Positions 7,296 to 62,371 of a stretch of DNA of 64,000 nucleotides are shown piece by piece. Origin of the DNA: a virus; the IMG/VR virus record IMGVR_UViG_3300042309_002885, positions 32,001-96,000 of that record. One strand, 5' to 3'. Every line of letters starts with the position of its first letter. Within the stretch, counting starts at the first letter, position 1. The notes under the pieces are model-generated. The model was given only the letters and a program-made list of their open reading frames with translations. It was not told the DNA's origin and did not search any database. Made by a program: the position numbers and the translations under genes.

Positions 7296-7323
7296 TTGAA
7301 CTTATTTATATATACACTATAAT
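7296..7323 (+). promoter_or_regulatory. sigma70-like promoter of dpdA
   Basis: TTGAAC-N16-TATAAT-N6-ATG. Confidence 0.7.
7303..7310 (-). promoter_or_regulatory. late promoter for the gp5 pair, back-to-back with the dpdA promoter
   Basis: TATAAATA on the minus strand. Confidence 0.6.
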
Positions 7324-7329
7324 AAATCT

Positions 7330-8133
7330 ATGCTTATATCGCACGAAACTCCTATTAGCTTTTTATCAAAGTCACACGAATATAATGATTACGACTACGC
7401 GTTAGTGCATTTATTTGAAACGCAACCAGAATATTATTCATTCTTTAAGTCGTGTGTCCTTCAAGGTCGTGAAGTTTTACTCGATAACTCAATCTTTGAA
7501 CTTAAAGAAGCATTCGACCATGTAAAGTATGCAAAATATATTGATGAGCTCAAACCTACATATTTTATCGTACCGGATGTTCTTGAAGACTCACGAGGTA
7601 CAATGGATTCGTATTTGAAGTTTAAGAGCGCTTACTTTAATTTACCAGGGCTGTGGATAGGTGCTGTTCAAGGAAAAACGTACCAAGATATTGTTGAGTG
7701 TTATAAATTTATGTCAAAGAATGCAGATTATATTGCAATTTCTTTTGACTATTCATGGTACCAGTTAATAGGTATTTCTAATAGCAGCGATCCTAATTTA
7801 GCTAGACTTGAACGCATGTGCTCGGGCCGTCAAAAATTAATCTCTATGCTACAAACAGATGGTATTTGGAATTATGAAAAGCCACACCACCTGCTAGGAG
7901 CGTCTCTTGCTCGTGAATTTAGCGCTTATAAACATGTTACGAGTATTAGATCTTGCGATACATCTAACCCGGTTGTAGCAGGTATTCTAGGAAAGAGATA
8001 CATACGGGGTATAGGCCTTTACGAAAAACCTAGTGTAATGCTTGCCGATCTAATTAATCACGACGTTACTGAGGAAGAAGAAATCGACATCTGGCACAAT
8101 GTTTATGAATTTAAAAGAATTTGTATGTCATGA
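7330..8133 (+). CDS. dpdA: DpdA-like 7-deazaguanine:DNA transglycosylase (TGT barrel)
   Basis: TGT-like motifs in the expected order: LLDNS, VPDV, GAVQG, HLLG, SCDTSNP; 267 aa with no tRNA-TGT Zn domain; sits in an operon with queF. Confidence 0.75.
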   Translation: MLISHETPISFLSKSHEYNDYDYALVHLFETQPEYYSFFKSCVLQGREVLLDNSIFELKEAFDHVKYAKYIDELKPTYFIVPDVLEDSRGTMDSYLKFKSAYFNLPGLWIGAVQGKTYQDIVECYKFMSKNADYIAISFDYSWYQLIGISNSSDPNLARLERMCSGRQKLISMLQTDGIWNYEKPHHLLGASLAREFSAYKHVTSIRSCDTSNPVVAGILGKRYIRGIGLYEKPSVMLADLINHDVTEEEEIDIWHNVYEFKRICMS

Positions 8134-8693
8134 AATGGGCAGCATTATTCTCACAAACTGGTTCTGAGATTTGCAATCTTTCAGAAAAACTAGGTCATTA
8201 TCCTGATCTAGTTATTTCAGATAATACTAATGAAGCTAATATAGTAGATCCAAGAATTGAACTTAACTGTAAAAAGCTTCTTTGGAGAAAGTATAAGGGA
8301 TTAACGAAAGAAGAAAAGCTCGATTATTATAGAAAATATCTTCAAGGGTATGATATTATAACGCTCCACGGCTGGCTTAACATTGTACCTGCAGATATAT
8401 GTAATGAATTTAATATATACAACGGTCACCCTGGTCTTATTAATTACTTTCCAGAGTTAAAAGGTAAGAATCCGCAGGTACGAGCTTGGGATAATATTAG
8501 CAATTATCAATTTGTAGGTAGTGTTATTCATAAAGTTACACCAGGAGTAGATGAAGGTCCTATTATTTGTTATAGTAAGGTAAGTTCAAATTGTTGTATT
8601 GGTTTAGATTCTACTTTCGGTAGTTTAAAACAAACATCGCTTGATTCTTGGGTTGATTTCTTTAACAATAAACGATATAATATTATATGCTAA
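8121..8693 (+). CDS. PurN/Fmt-like formyltransferase, candidate dPreQ1 formyltransferase (DpdN-like)
   Basis: ITLHGWLNIV, YNGHPGL...P.LKG, GSVIHKVTPGVDEGPII formyltransferase motifs; overlaps dpdA. Confidence 0.8.
   Translation: MYVMKWAALFSQTGSEICNLSEKLGHYPDLVISDNTNEANIVDPRIELNCKKLLWRKYKGLTKEEKLDYYRKYLQGYDIITLHGWLNIVPADICNEFNIYNGHPGLINYFPELKGKNPQVRAWDNISNYQFVGSVIHKVTPGVDEGPIICYSKVSSNCCIGLDSTFGSLKQTSLDSWVDFFNNKRYNIIC
8653..8681 (+). promoter_or_regulatory. sigma70-like promoter of the kinase gene
   Basis: TTGATT-N17-TATAAT-N5-ATG. Confidence 0.7.
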
Positions 8694-9292
8694 TTAGCTT
8701 TTCGGGAGCACAAAGTACGGGAAAAAGTACATTACTAAAGATGTGGCAGGAAGCTATACCTGAGTGGGATTATATTCCTGAAGTTACTAGATTGGTTAAA
8801 CGTGAATATGATTTACCAATTAACGAAGATGGTAATGATCTTACTCAGACAATGATAATGGGCGAGCATTTGCGTAATGCTTTTATAAAGAGAGAGAAAC
8901 ATGCAATTTTAGATAGATGTTCTCTTGATGGGCTTGTATATACACATTGGCTTTGTGATAATAAAAAAGTATCTGTGGGTGCGTATTCGCATGCTAGATA
9001 TGTATTTGATAATACTATCGATAAGTATGATCTTATTATATATACATCACCGGAAGATGTTCCTGTTGTAGATGATGGTGAGAGAAGTATTAATATAAAA
9101 TTTAGAGAAGAAATTATTGAATTGTTTGAACAATATCTTATTACTATTCCTGAACGAAAGCTTCTTAGGGTTAGAGGTGATGTAAGGCAGCGTATTGATC
9201 AGATAGGACTTGCATTTGAGTATATCGGCATGGGTAACTACAGTCCTCTTACCTTTAATAGATCTTTTTTTCGTCCTATCTCCTGTAATTAA
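8687..9292 (+). CDS. P-loop nucleotide kinase-like protein (AAA_28/NadR/dNMP-kinase type)
   Basis: GAQSTGKST, ILDRCSLDGLVYT, YDLIIY, VVDDGER. Confidence 0.75.
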   Translation: MLISFSGAQSTGKSTLLKMWQEAIPEWDYIPEVTRLVKREYDLPINEDGNDLTQTMIMGEHLRNAFIKREKHAILDRCSLDGLVYTHWLCDNKKVSVGAYSHARYVFDNTIDKYDLIIYTSPEDVPVVDDGERSINIKFREEIIELFEQYLITIPERKLLRVRGDVRQRIDQIGLAFEYIGMGNYSPLTFNRSFFRPISCN

Positions 9293-9326
9293 CTTGCAGA
9301 ACAAACATATTAATATAAAATAAATT

Positions 9327-10268
9327 ATGGCATCAAAAACGAAACTAGATAATTCGAATATCAGCAAACACCTTGGTCAGACGTCACAATATAAATCGAC
9401 TTACGATCCATCGCTCTTGGTACGCGAACCAAGACAATCAAATAGAACGCACCTTAATATTCAAGATGATAATCTCCCTTTCATCGGCAACGATACCTGG
9501 AATGCGTATGAGGTGTCTGGTTTGACAGATACGGGGTTACCTGTAACAGGTGTCGCTAAAATTGTCTATCCATGTACAAGTAAGTATATTGTTGAGTCAA
9601 AGTCTATTAAGCTTTACTTTAATAGCTTCAACATGACTAAGCTAGGCGAAACATCAGATGAAGTACGTTCGGTTATTTCGCGTAGAGCTAGTGTAGATCT
9701 TTCAAGACTCCTGGAAACAGATGTACAGGTTCATGTATTTAGTAATATATCTATATTAGAAGATGCAGAGTGTGCTATTAATGAGTGGGGTCATGATGTT
9801 AGTAAGCATAAAGGAGCAACATATGTTACACTCGAAGAAGTGTATCCTGTTGAGGGTGTAGAATTTAATACATATATTGAAACGCCTAAACTTCTTAGGG
9901 TGCTAGATTCAGAAGTTGCAGAAGTATACTATCATAGTGCTTTACTTAAATCAAACTGTAGAGTTACTTCGCAGCCTGATTGGGGCGATGTGTATATTTA
10001 TATGAAAGGAGACAAAACTGTAGATCCTATTTCCCTCCTACAATATATTGTTTCGTTTAGAGATGAATGTCACTTTCATGAAGAAATTTGCGAAACTATT
10101 TATAAAAGACTATACGACGCGATTAAACCTGATGAGCTTTGTGTGAGGTGTTTATATGCAAGACGTGGTGGTATTGATATTAACCCGGAACGTGCTTCTA
10201 GTAAAAGTCTGCTTCACCCTACTTTGAGTGACGAAACAGTACCGTATATTAAAACCCCCAAGCAATAA
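9327..10268 (+). CDS. queF: NADPH-dependent preQ0 reductase, bimodular type II
   Basis: VESKSIKLYFNSF, LLKSNCRVTSQPDWG (catalytic Cys), FHEEICE, YARRGGIDINP. Confidence 0.95.
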   Translation: MASKTKLDNSNISKHLGQTSQYKSTYDPSLLVREPRQSNRTHLNIQDDNLPFIGNDTWNAYEVSGLTDTGLPVTGVAKIVYPCTSKYIVESKSIKLYFNSFNMTKLGETSDEVRSVISRRASVDLSRLLETDVQVHVFSNISILEDAECAINEWGHDVSKHKGATYVTLEEVYPVEGVEFNTYIETPKLLRVLDSEVAEVYYHSALLKSNCRVTSQPDWGDVYIYMKGDKTVDPISLLQYIVSFRDECHFHEEICETIYKRLYDAIKPDELCVRCLYARRGGIDINPERASSKSLLHPTLSDETVPYIKTPKQ

Positions 10269-10292: not shown

Positions 10293-10613
10293 ATGCCTAT
10301 ACCTACCACAAACAATGGTTCAACATTTTATAATATTAATGAATGTAGATCTTTCAAACAAGCTATCGGTACAAGTCTCGTAGGTCTTTCTGCTCAACCA
10401 TGCTCTGAGGTTATTATAATAAATAAGACAGGTGGAAATTTAACTATTTATGATAATAACTATTCAAGTAATAGTTTTGGGTTTCTTTTAGCGAGTAACG
10501 AGTCGTTTACTTTTAGAGGTATAACCAATACAAACATGGTATCCGCTATAGCAGCTTCAAGCGGAGATATATACTACCGTACACAGTTTTTTAGTTTACT
10601 TCCACAGCGCTAA
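10293..10613 (+). CDS. late hypothetical protein, probably virion-associated
   Basis: AATAAATA 5 nt upstream; Ser/Thr/Asn-rich beta-type sequence. Confidence 0.65.
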   Translation: MPIPTTNNGSTFYNINECRSFKQAIGTSLVGLSAQPCSEVIIINKTGGNLTIYDNNYSSNSFGFLLASNESFTFRGITNTNMVSAIAASSGDIYYRTQFFSLLPQR

Positions 10614-36251: not shown

Positions 36252-36983
36252 CTATATCAGTCCGAATTTTTTGTATAACTCCTTTTCATGCTCCTCTTGT
36301 TCGAGAGCAGCTTTTTGTTGTTTAACGAGAGCTTCAAGCTCGTCGAGTTTTTCTGGATTAAATAAAGAATGCTCATCACCATACAGTTCGCCATCTTCAT
36401 TAATGTACTCGGATATTATATCTATACGTCTTTGTGGATTACCGGGTAGTTTTATTACACCTGGCGAATCATCTTTAGGGAAGAAGACATCAGCATCGTA
36501 ATTTTGCTCGTATTGTGCAAAGAGAGCTTTAAATATATTATCTATTTCCTTTATATACTCTACATTAGTGTCTCTTAAAGTATCTTCTTGTATCTTTATT
36601 GAACTATCATATTCAAGTAAGAATATGATATCTAAATGTCTCATTGATTCTTTGGTTAAAGTGATACATTTATCAACATATTTCTTATCGAATCCATCGA
36701 TACCTTTTTCATGCGCCCATAATGTATATACTAGATTGTCAAGTGGGCATCTATCAAAAACTACTTTAGATTTTTTATCATATGATTGAAGTTGATCAAT
36801 CATAAAATTAAGTATATCCCACTGTGTACTAGTTGTAGTTGAAGAAGAGTGTGGTAAACTTTTTTCTATAATAATATCTCGGTAGGTCTTTTCAGGTGTG
36901 GTGTATTTTGACCATACCGTTAAAAAGTTTTTTATAAGTGTCGTCTTACCGGTGTTTGCTGTACCTGAAAAAGCTATGCGCAT
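36252..36983 (-). CDS. second P-loop nucleotide kinase-like protein (AAA_28 type)
   Basis: GTANTGKTT, VFDRCPLDNLVYT, LDIIF, D.LRD. Confidence 0.75.
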   Translation of the reverse strand: MRIAFSGTANTGKTTLIKNFLTVWSKYTTPEKTYRDIIIEKSLPHSSSTTTSTQWDILNFMIDQLQSYDKKSKVVFDRCPLDNLVYTLWAHEKGIDGFDKKYVDKCITLTKESMRHLDIIFLLEYDSSIKIQEDTLRDTNVEYIKEIDNIFKALFAQYEQNYDADVFFPKDDSPGVIKLPGNPQRRIDIISEYINEDGELYGDEHSLFNPEKLDELEALVKQQKAALEQEEHEKELYKKFGLI

Positions 36984-37001: not shown

Positions 37002-37604
37002 TTAGCAATTTTTCAAGAAAGAAGACCACTCATCTTTGTATATATCAAAAGTAAGTCCGTTATTTGGCTTATACGGTCTATATCTTAATTTAAGACCTAC
37101 TTCGCTTAAATATTTGTTACTTTTCTTTGAATTTAAAAGTCTGTCACATGTGACTAAATTTTCCCAGGTATCTTTACCCCCCTTACTTTTCGGTACAACA
37201 TGATCAACACTAAGTTGCTCTTTGGTTAATTTTTTACCTGTATACACGCATGTGTAATTATCTCTCTTATATATATTATGCTTAGTAGGAAATTGTACAC
37301 GATTAAAAATAACTCTATCGAAGTTAGTGCAGATTACTACCTGAGGGATTCTTACAGGTCCTCTAGCAGTATGTAAGTAATCATCATAAGGTCTTATTGG
37401 TAAAGATAGCCAATCCTTAACCCTAGGAACTGTAGTAAAGTATTCTACATTCTCTAAGTTTACACTAGCATCATCTCCCTCTTCGTAAGTTATATCTAAA
37501 GGTATTACTGCACCGGAAAATATATTTCCGAATGTCTTCTGCACTCCCTCAACAGCAACAGGAAAATAATACTTATTAAGTACTAAGGTCTTGTATGTTT
37601 TCAT
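37002..37604 (-). CDS. HNH endonuclease (McrA-like)
   Basis: RDNYTCVYTG, SVDHVVPKSKGG..TWENLVTC...NSKK. Confidence 0.9.
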   Translation of the reverse strand: MKTYKTLVLNKYYFPVAVEGVQKTFGNIFSGAVIPLDITYEEGDDASVNLENVEYFTTVPRVKDWLSLPIRPYDDYLHTARGPVRIPQVVICTNFDRVIFNRVQFPTKHNIYKRDNYTCVYTGKKLTKEQLSVDHVVPKSKGGKDTWENLVTCDRLLNSKKSNKYLSEVGLKLRYRPYKPNNGLTFDIYKDEWSSFLKNC

Positions 37605-38365
37605 CAGACTTTAAGTGCCATATTCCAGAGAAGAAGATGAAGTCTCGGACTGAAGTTAACATGCATTGCTTTAGCGTATTCTGCAACAGCTGGAGCTTTC
37701 TCAATATGCTCTTCGCGTGACCCGCAACATGGCATAAACCATACACGACTAAGCGGTACGTTAATATTTTCCTTATCGTTTACATATTTACGCCAGATTT
37801 CTTCAATGTCTTCTGATCTGCTAATTACAAATTTGAATCCAGAGTTATGATCTTTATGCCATTTCAGTACTTCTGGCTTATAGGTCTTTTCCTCTGGATC
37901 GCCGTTAGTGGTAAGTTTAGGTGAGGTAGTAAAAGTAGCATTAAATTCTGTAACCCATCGCTCATCGGGCATTAATGTAGCATTGGTTTCGAAGTCAATA
38001 CGAGGTATAAAATTATATCGATCTCTAAACGCCTCAACAAATTTAAGCAATTGTTTCTGCTGAATCATAGGCTCACCACCAGTTAGCTTCCAAATAGCAC
38101 CCTCACGCAAGTGAGTGACGTGATTACCGGTCGCCATGAGTTCGAAGATTTCATTAAATGACTTCTTATTCTTTACTGACCAAGAAATAAACGAATCACA
38201 ACCATTAGGAGAATCTTTTGACGCAAACCCGGAGCAACTCAAATTACACATGGACATCCTCATAAAAACAGATGGTTGACCAATATATTCTCCTTCACCT
38301 TCTAGTGTGTAAAAGATAAGATCATCACTCAAAAAGATAGTCTCTGTATCACAATCTACGCTCAT
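37604..38365 (-). CDS. queE: 7-carboxy-7-deazaguanine synthase (radical SAM)
   Basis: FYTLEGEG..IG.PSVFMR...CNLSC-x11-CDS, LTGGEP, ETN, SPK, FSPRLH. Confidence 0.9.
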   Translation of the reverse strand: MSVDCDTETIFLSDDLIFYTLEGEGEYIGQPSVFMRMSMCNLSCSGFASKDSPNGCDSFISWSVKNKKSFNEIFELMATGNHVTHLREGAIWKLTGGEPMIQQKQLLKFVEAFRDRYNFIPRIDFETNATLMPDERWVTEFNATFTTSPKLTTNGDPEEKTYKPEVLKWHKDHNSGFKFVISRSEDIEEIWRKYVNDKENINVPLSRVWFMPCCGSREEHIEKAPAVAEYAKAMHVNFSPRLHLLLWNMALKV

Positions 38366-38426: not shown

Positions 38427-39176
38427 ATGACTCACAAGTCCCCTACGCGTAAGCGTAAAAATGCAGGTTTGGATGAATTAGTAGATATCGAAGATTCTAT
38501 CCAAAAAAACTGGCTTTTTAATTTTAAAATTAAAAAGCCCTTCTACTTCAACACCAACCACAAAGCGTTTTATGAGTGTATAAAGCGTGAAGAGACTAAT
38601 ATGGTCTTTGTTGATGGTCCAGCGGGTAGTGCAAAGTCATATATTGCCGTACTTGCCGGGTTAGAGCTTATAAAAGATCAAAAGACACGAGGTATTACCT
38701 ACATTAGATCTGTTATTGAGTCTGCGTCAAGATCTATTGGTGCACTTCCAGGTGAGGTAGATGATAAATTCTTACCTTACGCAATGCCTTTAATTGAAAA
38801 GGTTAGAGAGGTTACCGATGATAGTACATGCGGGTTACTACAGTCTAGTAACATTATACATGCAGTGCCTGTTAACTTTGTTAGAGGACTTACATTCAAC
38901 GATAGTGTTGTAATAGTTGACGAAGCGCAAAATCTAACCAAGGGTGAGCTTGTAACAATATTAACGCGTTTTGGTAAGAATACAAAATATATTGTTTGTG
39001 GAGATTTAAAACAATCTGATATTGGTAAAGCTTCAGGATATGAGGAAATATTTAAACGTTTTAATAATGAAAAATGCGTAGATAATGAAATCTACGCATT
39101 TAAATTTGGTGAAGCAGAAATCGTAAGAAGTAAAATTCTACGATTTATTGTTGATGTTTTAGAAGCTAAACATTAA
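38427..39176 (+). CDS. phoH: PhoH-like ATPase
   Basis: GPAGSAKS, GALPG, FVRGLTF, VDEAQN, GD.KQSD, IVRS. Confidence 0.92.
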   Translation: MTHKSPTRKRKNAGLDELVDIEDSIQKNWLFNFKIKKPFYFNTNHKAFYECIKREETNMVFVDGPAGSAKSYIAVLAGLELIKDQKTRGITYIRSVIESASRSIGALPGEVDDKFLPYAMPLIEKVREVTDDSTCGLLQSSNIIHAVPVNFVRGLTFNDSVVIVDEAQNLTKGELVTILTRFGKNTKYIVCGDLKQSDIGKASGYEEIFKRFNNEKCVDNEIYAFKFGEAEIVRSKILRFIVDVLEAKH

Positions 39177-39802
39177 CCCCAGCTAGTACCAGAAAACCAG
39201 TTACCTTTACCGGATGTAACGTTTGAGCCTACGTGTGCAGCGTTAGCGGATACATGCCCAATATCTATCGATGGACTTACATTATTTGTAGTAATGTTAA
39301 CCTCTTCATGTACTTTGCTATTAAGTGGTTGTGTGCTTGGTTTTGTTAAGCAGCATTTTTTTTCTGTGTAAGTAGCGGAATTTTCTTCGTGTTCAAACAC
39401 TTCAACCTTTTCCACCCAGCATCTATCGTTGGTGTGATTTTTAATAAAATTATTTGCAACACTAAAAACCGTTTCGGCAACTCGCTCAATACCTACACCC
39501 TTTTCTAAGACTCTTAATTGAATAATTCCTCGCTTATCGAGATCTTCAAAAACAGGTAATTCAGGATCATCTGCTGCAACAGTTGTAGTATGATCAAAAA
39601 TATGCTTAAGTTTATCTTTAAGATCTTTTAGTCCTCCAAAATCTACACACCAGTTTTTATCATCAAGAGATGAAGCTCCAAACCAGAGCTTAGCTTTAAG
39701 TTGATAACCGTGAAGGAATTTACAATGTGAATGCGAAGCCCTCCATTGGCGAAACGCACATGATCCTAATTCAATAATTTTTGTTGATTCATACTTACTC
39801 AT
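39173..39802 (-). CDS. queD: 6-carboxy-tetrahydropterin synthase with a C-terminal extension
   Basis: HCKFLHGY, WCVDFGGLK, FDH, E..A, VEVFEH..NSA. Confidence 0.88.
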   Translation of the reverse strand: MSKYESTKIIELGSCAFRQWRASHSHCKFLHGYQLKAKLWFGASSLDDKNWCVDFGGLKDLKDKLKHIFDHTTTVAADDPELPVFEDLDKRGIIQLRVLEKGVGIERVAETVFSVANNFIKNHTNDRCWVEKVEVFEHEENSATYTEKKCCLTKPSTQPLNSKVHEEVNITTNNVSPSIDIGHVSANAAHVGSNVTSGKGNWFSGTSWG

Positions 39803-40832: not shown

Positions 40833-41501
40833 ATGGATGATTTTGAAGAACAAGACCTACAAGGTGAAGCGGTAAAGCTACCTAACGCTAATGGCAATGC
40901 ACCTAGAACAGATAAAGAAAAACAAAATATAATTAAACGCGCTGCAAAAGCTTATGAAAAGTATCTAGACGCATTAGGCTTTGATTGGAGAAACGATCCA
41001 AACTCCTCTAATACACCGATGCGAGTAGCGAAAGCTTTTGTTAATGATATCGCATCGGGGTGCTATAATAACCCACCGACGGTGACAGCGTTTCCTACTG
41101 ATGGTTATGACGGGGTTATAGCACAATGTAATATACCTGTCAAATCCCTCTGCTCACACCATCACCTTGCTTTTACAGGTGTAGCTCATGTAGCATATAT
41201 TCCTTCTCTCGATGGTAAGGTTATCGGACTTAGTAAGCTTAATCGTATAGTTGAATTCTATGCACGTAGACCTCAAATTCAGGAAGGTCTTACCAAACAA
41301 ATTGCAGAAGCTATTGATCAGGTATGTGAAAAAAATCGCGGAGTAGCCGTAGTTGTTAAAGCTCAACATACATGTGCATGTCACCGCGGTGTAAAGCATG
41401 AAGGCTGTTATATGATTACATCAAAGCTAACAGGTGATTTTATGGAAGATGAAAAGACACGGACGGAGTTCTATAAGTTTATTGATATGGCCTCTAAATA
41501 G
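40833..41501 (+). CDS. folE: GTP cyclohydrolase I
   Basis: [43 protein letters not shown]. Confidence 0.95.
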
Positions 41502-57390: not shown

Positions 57391-58485
57391 ATGGATAAAG
57401 ATGTTCTAAGTGCTTTAAATGAAATTGATGATGTAAATCCTTTCGCTACTTATTTGAGTGATAGTACGCTTAGCCGCGTTGGAGGATGGGTAGATACAGG
57501 TAGCTATGTTCTCAATGCTATTATCTCAGGTTCTATTCACGGTGGTATTCCAAAGGGTCGAGTTACTATGCTTGCCGGTGAATCCATGACAGGTAAATCA
57601 TTATTTGTACAAAAGATTCTCGCTAAGGCTCAACAAGAAGGTCTTATACCAGTAATTTTTGATACTGAAAACGCTATTGATCCTGAAGGAGCTCAACGAC
57701 TAGGTCTTGATATTAGTAAGGTAAAGTATGTGCCGTGTATCAGTATCGAACAAACGCGTAACGCTCTCTTTAAATTTCTTACATCTGTTAAAGAAAAGAA
57801 ACTTGAGGGTAAGTTCATTGTTGCAATCGACTCTTTAGGCAACCTTCAATCAGAGCTCGAGCTAGCTCGCATGGGAAAGGATAGTACCTCTGCAGATATG
57901 GGTACTAAAGCACGTGCAATGAAGTCACTAATGCAGACTTGTACCAATCTAGGTGCTGTAACTCAGACTACTATTCTTTGCACTAACCATGTTTATGACG
58001 ATCCCTCTGCTATGTTTCCATCAATTGAAAAACATATGCCAGGTGGTAAGGCATGTGTATATCTTCCATCAGTAACAGTTCAACTTGCACGTAAGCCGAT
58101 GAAATCTGATGATGGTAAAACAACAGACGGTGAATTAGCTGTCGGTCAAAAATCTTATGCAGGTATTATTATTAGAGCTCTTACGCGTAAAAATAGATTT
58201 ATTAAACAGTATCTCGAAGGCGAGATGTACCTATCCTTTGCTAACGGACTGGATAGGTATTATGGCTTGCTCGATCTTGCGGTCGGTCTTGGTGTAGTTA
58301 TTCAGAACGGATCGACATACGCTCTTGAAGATGGAACTAAGCTAGGGTATTATCGCAACTTTAGAAAGGACACCAAATTATGGGAAGAAATCATACTTCC
58401 CAAACTAGATGCGCGTATCAAAAAAGAGTGGTCCTACAGCAATCTCGAAGAAGAGACACCAGAAGAAATAAACGATGAAGCGTAA
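57391..58485 (+). CDS. uvsX: UvsX/RecA-like recombinase
   Basis: DTGSYVLN, AGESMTGKS, FDTENA, IDSLG, NHVY, PGG, GLDRYYGL. Confidence 0.93.
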   Translation: MDKDVLSALNEIDDVNPFATYLSDSTLSRVGGWVDTGSYVLNAIISGSIHGGIPKGRVTMLAGESMTGKSLFVQKILAKAQQEGLIPVIFDTENAIDPEGAQRLGLDISKVKYVPCISIEQTRNALFKFLTSVKEKKLEGKFIVAIDSLGNLQSELELARMGKDSTSADMGTKARAMKSLMQTCTNLGAVTQTTILCTNHVYDDPSAMFPSIEKHMPGGKACVYLPSVTVQLARKPMKSDDGKTTDGELAVGQKSYAGIIIRALTRKNRFIKQYLEGEMYLSFANGLDRYYGLLDLAVGLGVVIQNGSTYALEDGTKLGYYRNFRKDTKLWEEIILPKLDARIKKEWSYSNLEEETPEEINDEA

Positions 58486-59224
58486 AAAATTAGTATTAGC
58501 ATTTTCTGGCGGTTGCGATTCATCTGTACTTCTCTTTATGGCGGCAGGTAGAGGATATGAAGAAATTCATACCGTAACCTTCGATTATGGTCAAAGACAT
58601 CGTCGTGAAATGCAATGTGTACCGCTTCAAAAATGGAGTCTTGAAGAGAAATACCCTAATGTTAAATTTACAAATAAAGTATTAGATGTAAGCTATCTAA
58701 AGGATATCTCTCCTACGTCCTCGTTAACAAATCTAGAAATTGATAATCCAGATATAAGTAAAATCGCCGGTGATGCACAGCCTGTTTCATATGTTCCGTT
58801 TCGTAATCAAATGTTTATTACGATTTGCTGTGCTTACGCGGAAAGTCTCGGTGCAGACGCGGTTTGGTACGGTGCAGCGCAAGTAGACTCGTTAGCTGGC
58901 TACTGGGATGGCTCGCAAGAATTCGTTGATAGTATAAATCAGTTAGCAGCTCTTAACAGACAACATAGGATCCTCATTGAAGCTCCATTGCTCTCCTTGT
59001 CAAAAGCAGACATCATACGAGAAGGTGTAAAACTAGGCGTTCAGTTCGAGAACACATGGACATGTTATAGTAACCGCGAGGATGGTCTTGCTGATGCTAC
59101 TACACCGTCGAGTAGTTTGCGAGTTCAGGGCTTTATTAGCGCTGGATATAAGGATCCCATCAAGTACCTTCAACAGGATAAGCTTGATGGGATATATAAA
59201 GAAAAGAATTGTAAAGAATTATAA
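58475..59224 (+). CDS. queC: 7-cyano-7-deazaguanine synthase QueC, atypical (Zn ligands missing)
   Basis: FSGGCDSS, YGQRH..E, YVPFRN, TWTCY; lacks the CxxCxxC triad and YPDC. Confidence 0.85.
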   Translation: MKRKKLVLAFSGGCDSSVLLFMAAGRGYEEIHTVTFDYGQRHRREMQCVPLQKWSLEEKYPNVKFTNKVLDVSYLKDISPTSSLTNLEIDNPDISKIAGDAQPVSYVPFRNQMFITICCAYAESLGADAVWYGAAQVDSLAGYWDGSQEFVDSINQLAALNRQHRILIEAPLLSLSKADIIREGVKLGVQFENTWTCYSNREDGLADATTPSSSLRVQGFISAGYKDPIKYLQQDKLDGIYKEKNCKEL

Positions 59225-60724: not shown

Positions 60725-61048
60725 ATGCAATTAAATTGGAAAGATTTTAATGAAATGTCGTTTAATAATATTTGTAAATTGCCAGGAATCGGTAAAAAGG
60801 CTGCGGAACGTGTAATTGCTAACAGACCCTTTAGATCAAACAATGATCTTTTTAAGATTAAAGGGTTAGGTACCAGAACTTTAAGGAATTTAGGTATAGA
60901 AAAGACAAAAAAAGAGCGAAAGTCGTGGTATCTCATGGAAGATGGTATAGAATACCCGTCTTACGCACTTGCAAAGAATATTTTGACTGGAAAAATTGAT
61001 TTTTTCTGGAGAATTTCAAAAGATAAGCGAGAATATCTTGTAAGATAA
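60725..61048 (+). CDS. helix-hairpin-helix DNA-binding protein (ComEA-like)
   Basis: LPGIGKKAAERVI..RPF....DL..IKGLG. Confidence 0.85.
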   Translation: MQLNWKDFNEMSFNNICKLPGIGKKAAERVIANRPFRSNNDLFKIKGLGTRTLRNLGIEKTKKERKSWYLMEDGIEYPSYALAKNILTGKIDFFWRISKDKREYLVR

Positions 61049-61052
61049 CGTA

Positions 61053-61718
61053 ATGTGTGCAATTATTGGCTCTAAAAACACTTCAAAACTTGAAGTTATG
61101 TATACTGCTAACCTACCACGTGGTACTTTTGCTACTGGAATTGTTAGTTTGTATGATCATAACAATCAACAAACTATTAAAAAGCAAGGTACAATCGATT
61201 TTGACCAGATTCAGCTAGATGAATCGTGTGATTATTACGTCGGACACGTACAAGCACCTACATCTGCTAAGAGAATATGGTCATATGACACGTCTCATCC
61301 GTTCGAATCACTATCTTGGTCGGTTTTACATAACGGAGTGCTTACAAATCACGAGGAAATACGCTCAAAACACGTAAATTGGGACGTTAATCCCGTTGAT
61401 ACTGCGGTAATTCCGAATTTATTACAGCATTTCACAGAAAAATGCATAGAAGAGTGTCCTAGCCATGAAATTATTAAGAAAACACTTAGTTTATTGGAAG
61501 GTACATTTGCTTTATGTATTATCGATACTGATTGTAATGATATTTACCTCGCAAGACAGGGATCCATTCTCCACTACAACGATAGTGGAGATTTTTCCAC
61601 ACTCGGCGGCGAGGGATTTAAAATAGTACCAGAAGGTGTCATATTAATGCTTAAAGATTATACAAACTGGGAAGTAGTAAATCATTTTGAAGTTAAGTCT
61701 CCATTTTTATTCTTATGA
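61053..61718 (+). CDS. stand-alone class II (Ntn) glutamine amidotransferase
   Basis: N-terminal MC, GHVQAPT, HPF, LHNGVL.N, DT, GTFAL. Confidence 0.85.
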   Translation: MCAIIGSKNTSKLEVMYTANLPRGTFATGIVSLYDHNNQQTIKKQGTIDFDQIQLDESCDYYVGHVQAPTSAKRIWSYDTSHPFESLSWSVLHNGVLTNHEEIRSKHVNWDVNPVDTAVIPNLLQHFTEKCIEECPSHEIIKKTLSLLEGTFALCIIDTDCNDIYLARQGSILHYNDSGDFSTLGGEGFKIVPEGVILMLKDYTNWEVVNHFEVKSPFLFL

Positions 61719-62371
61719 AAACATTTTATTTTTCTGCTACGAAGGGAAGTCGAAAAAATACCATACTAGCTAGCAATTATTCGACGCATAATGAGTTTAT
61801 TTTCAAAGAGAATAACGCAGAGCCCCTACCCGTCGTTTATAACAAAGCAATAGACTTTGCGATTCAAGAAGATATGGATTTTTTAGTCTTATGCCATGAC
61901 GATGTAATTATAGAGTCAGACTTATCGCATAAAATTCCACCACTAATGCAGGAATTTGACATTATTGGTGTTGCAGGTGCAACAGAATGTAAGCTAAGTG
62001 AACCCGCTCTTTGGCATATAATGGGTGGAGGCTTTAATTCGGGTAAGCTACACGGCGCTGTAGCACACGGCGATAATAAAGCGAAGCATATGACTTGTTT
62101 TGGAAGTTACCCTGAACGTGTTTTGCTTCTTGACGGTGTATTCTTGTGCATGAGTAGAAATGTTTTTACGCAGGTGAGATTCGATGAATCTAATCCTGCA
62201 GGCTTTCACTTTTACGATCTTGATTATAGTTTATCTTGCTATAAAGCAGGCTTTAAGCTAGGTGTTTCAGATATCTTAATTACACATGCATCTCCAGGTC
62301 TGCGAGAATTTACCCCAGAATTTTTAGAAGGTCAACAATGGTTTCTTGAAAAGTGGAAGGGAGCGCTATAA
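61715..62371 (+). CDS. GT-A glycosyltransferase (Glyco_tranf_2_5-like)
   Basis: YNKAI, LVLCHDDV, IIGVAG, LLDGVF, FHFYDLD.S, ITHASPG; ATGA-coupled to the GATase. Confidence 0.85.
   Translation: MKTFYFSATKGSRKNTILASNYSTHNEFIFKENNAEPLPVVYNKAIDFAIQEDMDFLVLCHDDVIIESDLSHKIPPLMQEFDIIGVAGATECKLSEPALWHIMGGGFNSGKLHGAVAHGDNKAKHMTCFGSYPERVLLLDGVFLCMSRNVFTQVRFDESNPAGFHFYDLDYSLSCYKAGFKLGVSDILITHASPGLREFTPEFLEGQQWFLEKWKGAL

Follow-up and report, generated by a model that had tools for sequence, protein, structure and literature searches.

The 64,000-nt window analyzed here (bases 32001-96000 of the 121,925-bp IMG/VR record IMGVR_UViG_3300042309_002885, estimated completeness 58%) very probably encodes a 7-deazaguanine system of the type known from Flavobacterium phage immuto_2-6A, and the virion DNA of this uncultured T4-like phage is predicted to contain the formylated deoxynucleoside of 7-aminomethyl-7-deazaguanine (preQ1), i.e., formylated dPreQ1 (fdPreQ1). 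The system centers on a cassette of four genes, dpdA3, dpdN, kin1 and queF (Table 1). In immuto_2-6A, the genes for DpdA3, a 50-aa open reading frame (ORF), DpdN, a protein labeled 'thymidylate kinase' and QueF follow the order of our cassette, and the four proteins of the window are 47.7% (DpdA3), 45% (DpdN), 35% (kinase) and 47% (QueF) identical to them; the full FolE-QueD-QueE-QueC set is present in both phages. The DNA of immuto_2-6A contains 345,000 fdPreQ1 per 10^6 nt and no deoxyguanosine (dG) (Cui et al. 2023, PMC10516641). Because G is fully replaced by fdPreQ1 in a phage with the same cassette, the prediction is well supported, and the gene order is not due to chance, since dozens of independent viral contigs have it too. 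An earlier reading of the window from its letters (hereafter, the sequence-only reading) had already suggested fdPreQ1 DNA; orthology and the gene order common to immuto_2-6A support this suggestion, which is still a homology-based prediction. With this cassette, a published system gains a further uncultured member, and a prediction of fdPreQ1 DNA is not in itself novel.

The four genes were found on the + strand between positions 7330 and 10268 as partly overlapping ORFs, adjacent and co-oriented as the sequence-only reading had described them. The probable start codon of dpdN is the ATG at 8130, which forms an ATGA overlap (8130-8133) with the stop codon of dpdA3, and the start of kin1 overlaps the end of dpdN by 7 nt (8687-8693); dpdA3, dpdN and kin1 are translationally coupled. 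A megablast search of cultured phages with the cassette as query found nothing, and relatives of the cassette were found by protein-level searches only. In the proposed pathway, FolE, QueD, QueE and QueC would convert GTP to 7-cyano-7-deazaguanine (preQ0), which QueF would convert to preQ1. DpdA3, a minimal barrel with the fold of tRNA-guanine transglycosylase (TGT), would exchange guanine on 2'-deoxyribose for the deazaguanine, and DpdN would formylate the 7-aminomethyl group from formyl-folate. The resulting virion DNA would carry fdPreQ1 in place of most or all of its G, which would block restriction. The roles of DpdA3 in transglycosylation and of DpdN in formylation are both proposals of the 2023 study (PMC10516641).

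The subfamily of the transglycosylase, which the sequence-only reading had left open, can be assigned to DpdA3 by homology to its founding members, namely CGPG_00065 of Cellulophaga phage phiST, the homologs of Campylobacter phages and gp206 of immuto (Cui et al. 2023, PMC10516641). In tblastn searches of cultured phages, the best identity was to the immuto protein annotated as 'DNA guanine transglycosylase', followed by a hypothetical protein of Campylobacter Firehammervirus (CP220 gp056, 41%) and by CGPG_00065 (27%). The protein also matches phrog_19058 (1.2e-52), and no meaningful match was obtained in Pfam (TGT model included), NCBIfam or PDB sequences. Its AlphaFold model is a TIM barrel with a predicted local distance difference test score (pLDDT) of 95.2, and the top Foldseek matches of this model are all TGTs (E 1e-8). 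A second structure search against all representatives returned archaeal TGT (ArcTGT, Z 17.7), bacterial DpdA (bDpdA, 7UI4, 17.3), TGT (15.7) and QTRT2 (15.4), with generic barrels at Z of approximately 15.3 or below. At 90% identity, the DpdA3 family forms 3,955 clusters, and at 50% identity it has 3,526 representatives; none of these carries a name or a Pfam domain. The family is common in the searched metagenomes and viral contigs, some of them marine (Tara).

Residues D52, D83 and D210 of DpdA3 are invariant across 43 diverse homologs, and the other putative active-site positions are F/Y56, Q114 and L189. In Salmonella DpdA, Asp95 serves as acid/base, Phe99 as a gate, Asp130 and His181 contact the base edge, Leu236 provides stacking and Asp256 is the nucleophile (PMC10164549). 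The order and spacing of D52, F/Y56, D83, Q114, L189 and D210 parallel those of Asp95, Phe99, Asp130, His181, Leu236 and Asp256: the aromatic residue follows the first Asp at +4 in both proteins, and the distance from Leu to the last Asp is 21 residues in DpdA3 versus 20 in bDpdA. Moreover, the VQG and KPxxLxG motifs of DpdA3 align with E. coli Tgt. When DpdA3 profiles were compared with the single E. coli Tgt sequence by hhalign, the probabilities were 1.5% and 14% and only these two motifs were aligned; the order and spacing of motifs, together with the fold matches, are therefore the basis of the residue equivalences. Judging from these motifs, DpdA3 retains the putative acid/base, base-recognition and nucleophile Asp residues of the TGT/DpdA enzymes. 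There is no Cys cluster in the protein, which stops 57 residues past D210 and therefore lacks the TGT Zn subdomain as well as Ins8, an insertion of ~128 residues with which bDpdA binds and flips DNA (PMC10164549). Isoelectric point and net charge are uninformative as to DNA binding versus small-molecule use (median pI 5.55 for DpdA3 and 5.97 for E. coli Tgt).

The dpdN product matches Formyl_trans_N (PF00551, 4.1e-7; 30.4 bits versus a cut-off of 26.1), and the immuto phages provided its only strong matches among 50,697 phage records (YP_010114479, E 1e-45). Residues N101-x-H103 and D144, which are invariant in 10 DpdN orthologs, align with the catalytic NxH and D of the glycinamide ribonucleotide (GAR) transformylase 3AUF, and a conserved FSQTGSE loop is present near the N-terminus. 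DpdN also weakly matches the sugar N-formyltransferases VioF (2.7e-4) and PseJ (8e-4), which would fit a reading in which the genes serve RNA or metabolism, with tRNA modification boosting host queuosine or a sugar/purine formyltransferase working for glycosyltransferases. We consider such a role highly improbable, because DpdN lies within a deazaguanine cassette at every locus examined and is naturally fused to DpdA3 in two 447-aa proteins (P0155, L030:554-1897; P0160, L031:2262-3605), each flanked by an AAA_28 kinase. No QueA/QueG-type genes were noticed among the scanned ORFs, and the three cultured DpdA3 phage groups all have fully modified DNA (PMC10516641).

The last gene of the cassette encodes a QueF in which both Pfam domains are above their cut-offs (QueF_N, 5e-33; QueF, 2.1e-22) and which scores 249.8 bits against NCBIfam TIGR03138, under its cut-off of 293.45. 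It carries an ESKSIKLY sequence, and C211 lies in ..NCRVTSQPDW..; we take these to be the QueF motif and the catalytic Cys, respectively. The queE, queD, folE and queC genes, which the sequence-only reading had placed at scattered sites from 37.6 to 59.2 kb, were recovered there by Pfam and NCBIfam family matches, that of QueE being below cut-off (Table 1). By these predicted functions, the window encodes a complete preQ1 pathway, FolE-QueD-QueE-QueC-QueF. The Cys residues of the QueE-like enzyme are spaced C40-x3-C44-x11-C56, unlike the usual CxxxCxxC of radical S-adenosylmethionine (radical-SAM) enzymes.

Several points weigh against an fdPreQ1 system of the immuto type. The QueE is divergent and falls under all curated QueE cut-offs, the record is incomplete, and tests of DpdA3 in E. 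coli were unsuccessful (PMC10516641). In addition, a free class-II glutamine amidotransferase (GATase) is encoded near QueC and could divert preQ0 to another product. It has no counterpart in immuto and weakly resembles (32%) the Gat portion of a Gat-QueC region in a Vibrio phage; possibly, it feeds ammonia to QueC or opens an archaeosine-type branch. Hence the final base might be dPreQ1, dPreQ0, deoxyarchaeosine (dG+, made with QueC and the free GATase) or a base modified further, an outcome that would also fit the variable slot of sister cassettes, which have no DpdN or a GNAT protein instead, and the status of DpdN formylation as a proposal (PMC10516641). We regard a base other than fdPreQ1 as unlikely, as the catalytic residues of DpdN are all intact, its gene is translationally coupled to those of DpdA3 and Kin1, and the same four genes in immuto give only fdPreQ1 (PMC10516641). 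The region at 60725-62371, 1.5-3 kb past QueC, holds genes for a helix-hairpin-helix (HhH) protein, the free GATase and a coupled GT-A glycosyltransferase.

Table 1. Features of the 7-deazaguanine system and its surroundings in the window (positions are those of the window)
Feature	Position	Strand	Description
Promoter candidate	7296-7323	+	sigma-70-like, TTGAAC-16-TATAAT; 10/12 consensus matches
dpdA3	7330-8133	+	267 aa; DpdA3-family TGT-fold protein, predicted guanine / 7-deazaguanine exchange enzyme
dpdN	8130-8693 (mechanical ORF 8121-8693, TTG start)	+	187 aa (190 aa from 8121); PurN-like formyltransferase
kin1	8687-9292	+	201 aa; NadR-RNK/deoxynucleoside-kinase-like P-loop kinase
queF	9327-10268	+	313 aa; bimodular (type II) preQ0 reductase
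orf106	10293-10613	+	small protein; no family match (Pfam, NCBIfam, PHROG)
Kin2	36252-36983	-	243 aa; AAA_28 kinase paralog; AAA_28 1.4e-11
QueE	37604-38365	-	QueE-like radical-SAM enzyme; five QueE NCBIfam models 1e-7 to 2e-12; Fer4_12
QueD	39173-39802	-	6-carboxytetrahydropterin synthase; PTPS 8.5e-14; 42% identity to immuto QueD
FolE	40833-41501	+	GTP cyclohydrolase I; PF01227 6.2e-52; NF006826 165.7 bits, above cut-off
QueC	58475-59224	+	7-cyano-7-deazaguanine synthase; PF06508 1.1e-49; TIGR00364 1.1e-42
Free GATase	61053-61718	+	class-II glutamine amidotransferase; GATase_6/7; 1.8 kb from QueC

The conservation of the cassette was examined in 84 distinct DpdA3-seeded IMG/VR loci, 72 of which have at least 2.5 kb downstream and were used for counts, and in a kinase-seeded set drawn from the best 80 of 382 IMG/VR matches, which yielded 71 loci with enough flank. 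A kinase lies between DpdA3 and QueF in 64 of the 72 DpdA3-seeded loci, which comprise 35 DpdA3-Kin-QueF, 25 DpdA3-DpdN-Kin-QueF, 4 DpdA3-GNAT-Kin-QueF and 8 DpdA3-alone types; in at least three of the last, DpdN-Kin-QueF is found ~7 kb away, beyond an insertion. All 71 kinase-seeded loci lie within deazaguanine cassettes. The slot between DpdA3 and the kinase is variable and holds DpdN, GNAT or nothing. The adjacency of DpdA3 and the kinase is kept in the absence of QueF, as DpdA3-Kin in CP220 and as QueC-DpdA3-Kin-polymerase in CC_R7, and in one of the two fusion loci (L030) the kinase is upstream (Kin-DpdA3::DpdN), so that the order is altered and the linkage retained. On the far side of QueF, a homolog of orf106 follows directly 3' in 5 DpdA3-seeded and 17 kinase-seeded loci, the closest relatives. 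At the other end of the cassette, the promoter candidate sits in the 51-nt divergent intergenic region 5' of dpdA3; sigma-70-like sites are no more numerous in this region than expected from shuffling, and this site is a lead only.

Kin1 belongs to AAA_28 (5.9e-13; 49.8 bits versus a cut-off of 27). The top Foldseek matches of its model (pLDDT 86) are deoxyadenosine kinase (dAK), deoxycytidine kinase (dCK), the Drosophila deoxynucleoside kinase (Dm-dNK), the ribosylnicotinamide kinase (RNK) domain of NadR and thymidylate kinases (TMPK), all of which have the P-loop fold and the [DE]R motif after strand 3 in common with Kin1; the lid-region motif DDGxR(S) is found in NadR and Kin1. The sequence similarity of Kin1 to NadR and the deoxynucleoside kinases is at the profile level only (E ~1e-5), with 1.7e-5 for both NadR RNK and TMPK (Aquifex) and 1.4e-4 for the Giardia dNK, and in the kinase-seeded loci the Kin1 family is confined to deazaguanine cassettes. 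Its invariant positions are the P-loop, T34-R35, Q54, D76-R77 and D130-G131-x-R133-S134. The immuto and CP220 records label the Kin1 homolog thymidylate kinase, and Kin1 itself matches PHROG 2107, which has the same label (6.8e-23); the thymidylate kinase models of Pfam and NCBIfam gave no match to Kin1 at E ≤ 0.01. The sequence-only reading had listed a P-loop kinase, which is indeed present and is NadR/dNK-like, and had given no role to this most constant partner of DpdA3. Among cultured phages, Kin1 homologs occur only in DpdA3 phages and in distant Streptomyces phages; the latter were set aside as uninformative (29% identity, no deazaguanine context).

A second AAA_28 kinase, Kin2, shares 33% identity with Kin1 across the N-terminal 90 residues, a stretch that contains the motif DRC.LD..VYT. 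A gene for an HNH homing endonuclease (37002-37604) lies between QueE and the downstream Kin2, and in a relative without this gene (G004), QueE and Kin2 are directly adjacent. Kin2 is present in all five large relatives, in three of them within 1 kb of QueE. Kin1 and Kin2 are integral to the modification system. The kinase is never mentioned in the 2023 study (Cui et al. 2023, PMC10516641), and our literature searches on DpdA3, fdPreQ1, the kinase link, a pre-replicative route and an acetyl derivative, one of which was poorly specified, found no follow-up to that paper and no discussion of the kinase.

The constancy of the kinase bears on the level at which the base is exchanged. In the published post-replicative model, DpdA3 is a DNA transglycosylase that works on finished phage DNA and exchanges all of its G, DpdN acts on dPreQ1 in DNA or on the free base, and the kinases are accessory, either resupplying GMP/GTP to FolE from the released guanine or serving general nucleotide metabolism; the end product is unchanged. 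We place the probability of this model just short of one half. The characterized relatives of DpdA3, namely TGT, ArcTGT, bDpdA and DpdA1/2, all act on polymers, its fold is nearest to ArcTGT and bDpdA, and guanine salvage would agree with the phosphoribosyltransferases found in immuto and at phiST-type loci; the DNA-level route was also the one proposed in the original study (PMC10516641). The position of the kinase argues against it, since three cassette types all place the kinase between DpdA3 and QueF and it is retained beside DpdA3 under rearrangement (L030, L126) or QueF absence (CP220, CC_R7), as do the fold of Kin1, a nucleoside/nucleotide kinase and not a ParB-like DpdB, the missing Ins8 and Zn subdomain of DpdA3, and the inactivity of DpdA3 alone in E. 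coli (PMC10516641).

Alternatively, DpdA3 may be a mononucleotide or nucleoside exchanger and not a DNA editor, converting dG or dGMP and preQ1 to dPreQ1 or dPreQ1 monophosphate and guanine. Kin1 and Kin2 would then raise the DpdN-formylated nucleotide to the di- or triphosphate level, from which the phage polymerase would build fdPreQ1 DNA directly. We put this forward tentatively, with a chance that is substantial and somewhat below one half; it is a live alternative because DpdA3 lacks the DNA-binding insertion of bDpdA and has a near-constant kinase partner. It would account for the inactivity of DpdA3 on its own in E. coli, and it is favored by the nucleotide-enzyme neighborhoods of DpdA3 in other lineages. 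According to work cited in PMC10516641, the 7-amido-7-deazaguanine (ADG) nucleoside occurs in CP220-infected cells, and modified dGTP was proposed earlier for Campylobacter phages, as cited in Hutinet et al. 2019 (PMC6884629). Both points favor exchange in the pool, and the former also speaks against the post-replicative model.

Exchange in the nucleotide pool is weakened by the lack of a dGTP-removing enzyme: no MazG, PRA-PH or HD enzyme was found in the record of the window or in 4-5 large relatives, two of which are classed as 100% complete, and this counts in favor of exchange in DNA. To our knowledge, there is no precedent for a TGT-fold enzyme acting on a mononucleotide. Replacement through the nucleotide pool is exemplified by T4, with its dCTPase, dCMP hydroxymethylase and dNMP kinase, and by the Z-genome phages, with PurZ, MazZ and DatZ, and complete replacement of a base is typical of such pathways (hydroxymethylcytosine in T4, Z in the Z-genome phages), which again counts against the post-replicative model. 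By analogy, the DpdA3 systems would resemble them in the complete replacement of one base and in the genetic linkage of a base-modifying enzyme with a nucleotide kinase. Genes for NTP pyrophosphatases adjoin DpdA3 in immuto, phiST and the loci L127 and L128, as in the pool-level pathways; unlike in the T4 and Z pathways, no dGTP-removing enzyme was found in the clade of the window. The probability not taken up by exchange in finished DNA or in the pool falls to mixed routes or other roles of the kinases. On balance, we lean slightly toward kinases that phosphorylate the modified deoxynucleoside or nucleotide, with replacement proceeding at least partly via the dNTP pool.

Comparison with bacterial DpdA/DpdB (Salmonella Montevideo, 7UI4, PMC10164549) shows both likeness and difference. 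The common features are the TIM-barrel TGT fold (Z 17.3), the Asp/Phe/Asp/Leu/Asp order and spacing, and a partner protein that uses NTP. DpdB is a ParB-like ATPase, whereas Kin1 has a nucleoside-kinase fold, and bDpdA has 413 aa with the ~128-residue Ins8, compared with 267 aa for the DpdA3 of the window. In extent of modification, bDpdA affects <0.1% of Gs (PMC10516641). Kin1 was also considered as an analog of DpdB and rejected on fold, since its neighbors are nucleoside/nucleotide kinases with a Walker-A P-loop and DpdB is ParB-like with a DGQQR motif. In Campylobacter Firehammervirus CP220, whose G is completely replaced (PMC10516641), DpdA3 (gp056) is directly followed by an AAA_28 kinase (gp057), a Kin1 homolog with 32% identity by BLASTP. 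CP220 has no QueF and no DpdN, its product is 2'-deoxy-7-amido-7-deazaguanosine (dADG), and an HD::AAA_33 phosphohydrolase-kinase fusion (gp055) lies upstream.

The window and immuto also differ in several respects. The synthesis genes adjoin the cassette in immuto, whereas in the window they are 27-49 kb away. In immuto, a PRA-PH/MazG-like hydrolase lies directly upstream of DpdA3, together with a phosphoribosyltransferase; no such hydrolase was found in the window. Relative to immuto, the window has an extra kinase paralog by QueE and the free GATase by QueC. Their backbones are distinct as well, with a T4-like gp43 polymerase in the window and a family A polymerase in immuto. The gp43-type polymerase is ~31-33% identical to the polymerases of Pelagibacter and cyanobacterial T4-like phages. 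The record bears the IMG/VR label 'provirus', in contrast to the T4-like content of the window (gp5-like spike, gp43-type polymerase, UvsX/RecA-like protein and PhoH).

Besides DpdN, the variable slot may hold a GNAT protein (L094:5788-6360, and also L097, L107 and L111), which matches PF00583 (2e-4) and, weakly, amine acetyltransferases in PDB (such as PaiA). A GNAT in this position predicts an N-acyl (perhaps acetyl) dPreQ1, a compound that does not figure among the eight deazaguanine derivatives published so far. G007, a genome noted along with the GNAT-type loci, is 184.5 kb long and has terminal repeats. Further arrangements were observed in other lineages. The locus L126 (610-4086) has the order Kin-DpdA3-DCD-like-Vut_1-SDR-MT-A70, with a DpdA3 of 419 aa that bears a C-terminal extension. 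Vut_1 is the YhhQ-type queuosine-precursor transporter family, and this cassette seems to import its precursor instead of making it. In L127 and L128 (4001-5761), a 586-aa DpdA3 has a 317-aa N-terminal extension, MazG and dUTPase are directly upstream, and a 236-aa protein occupies the slot before Kin-QueF. In phiST-type loci, a different P-loop kinase (AAA_18) lies directly upstream of DpdA3, along with MazG; a locus of their relatives (L123:416-3627) reads FolE-phosphoribosyltransferase-DCD-like-(phiST hyp67 homolog::AAA_18 kinase fusion)-DNA ligase-DpdA3. DCD/dUTPase-like genes are also present in three large relatives, unlinked to the cassette.

As the DpdA3 family is large and common, environmental viromes may often contain fully deazaguanine-substituted DNA, which could bias analyses based on restriction, PCR or nanopore sequencing. 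Since the slot can be empty or hold DpdN or GNAT, additional deazaguanine derivatives that have yet to be described are to be suspected. With a kinase as near-constant partner, the question of exchange in DNA versus the nucleotide pool becomes directly testable, and the presence of this partner suggests why the reconstitution of DpdA3 failed. If exchange does occur in the pool, DpdA3 phages would complete their 7-deazaguanine replacement before replication, in contradiction to what was proposed in 2023.

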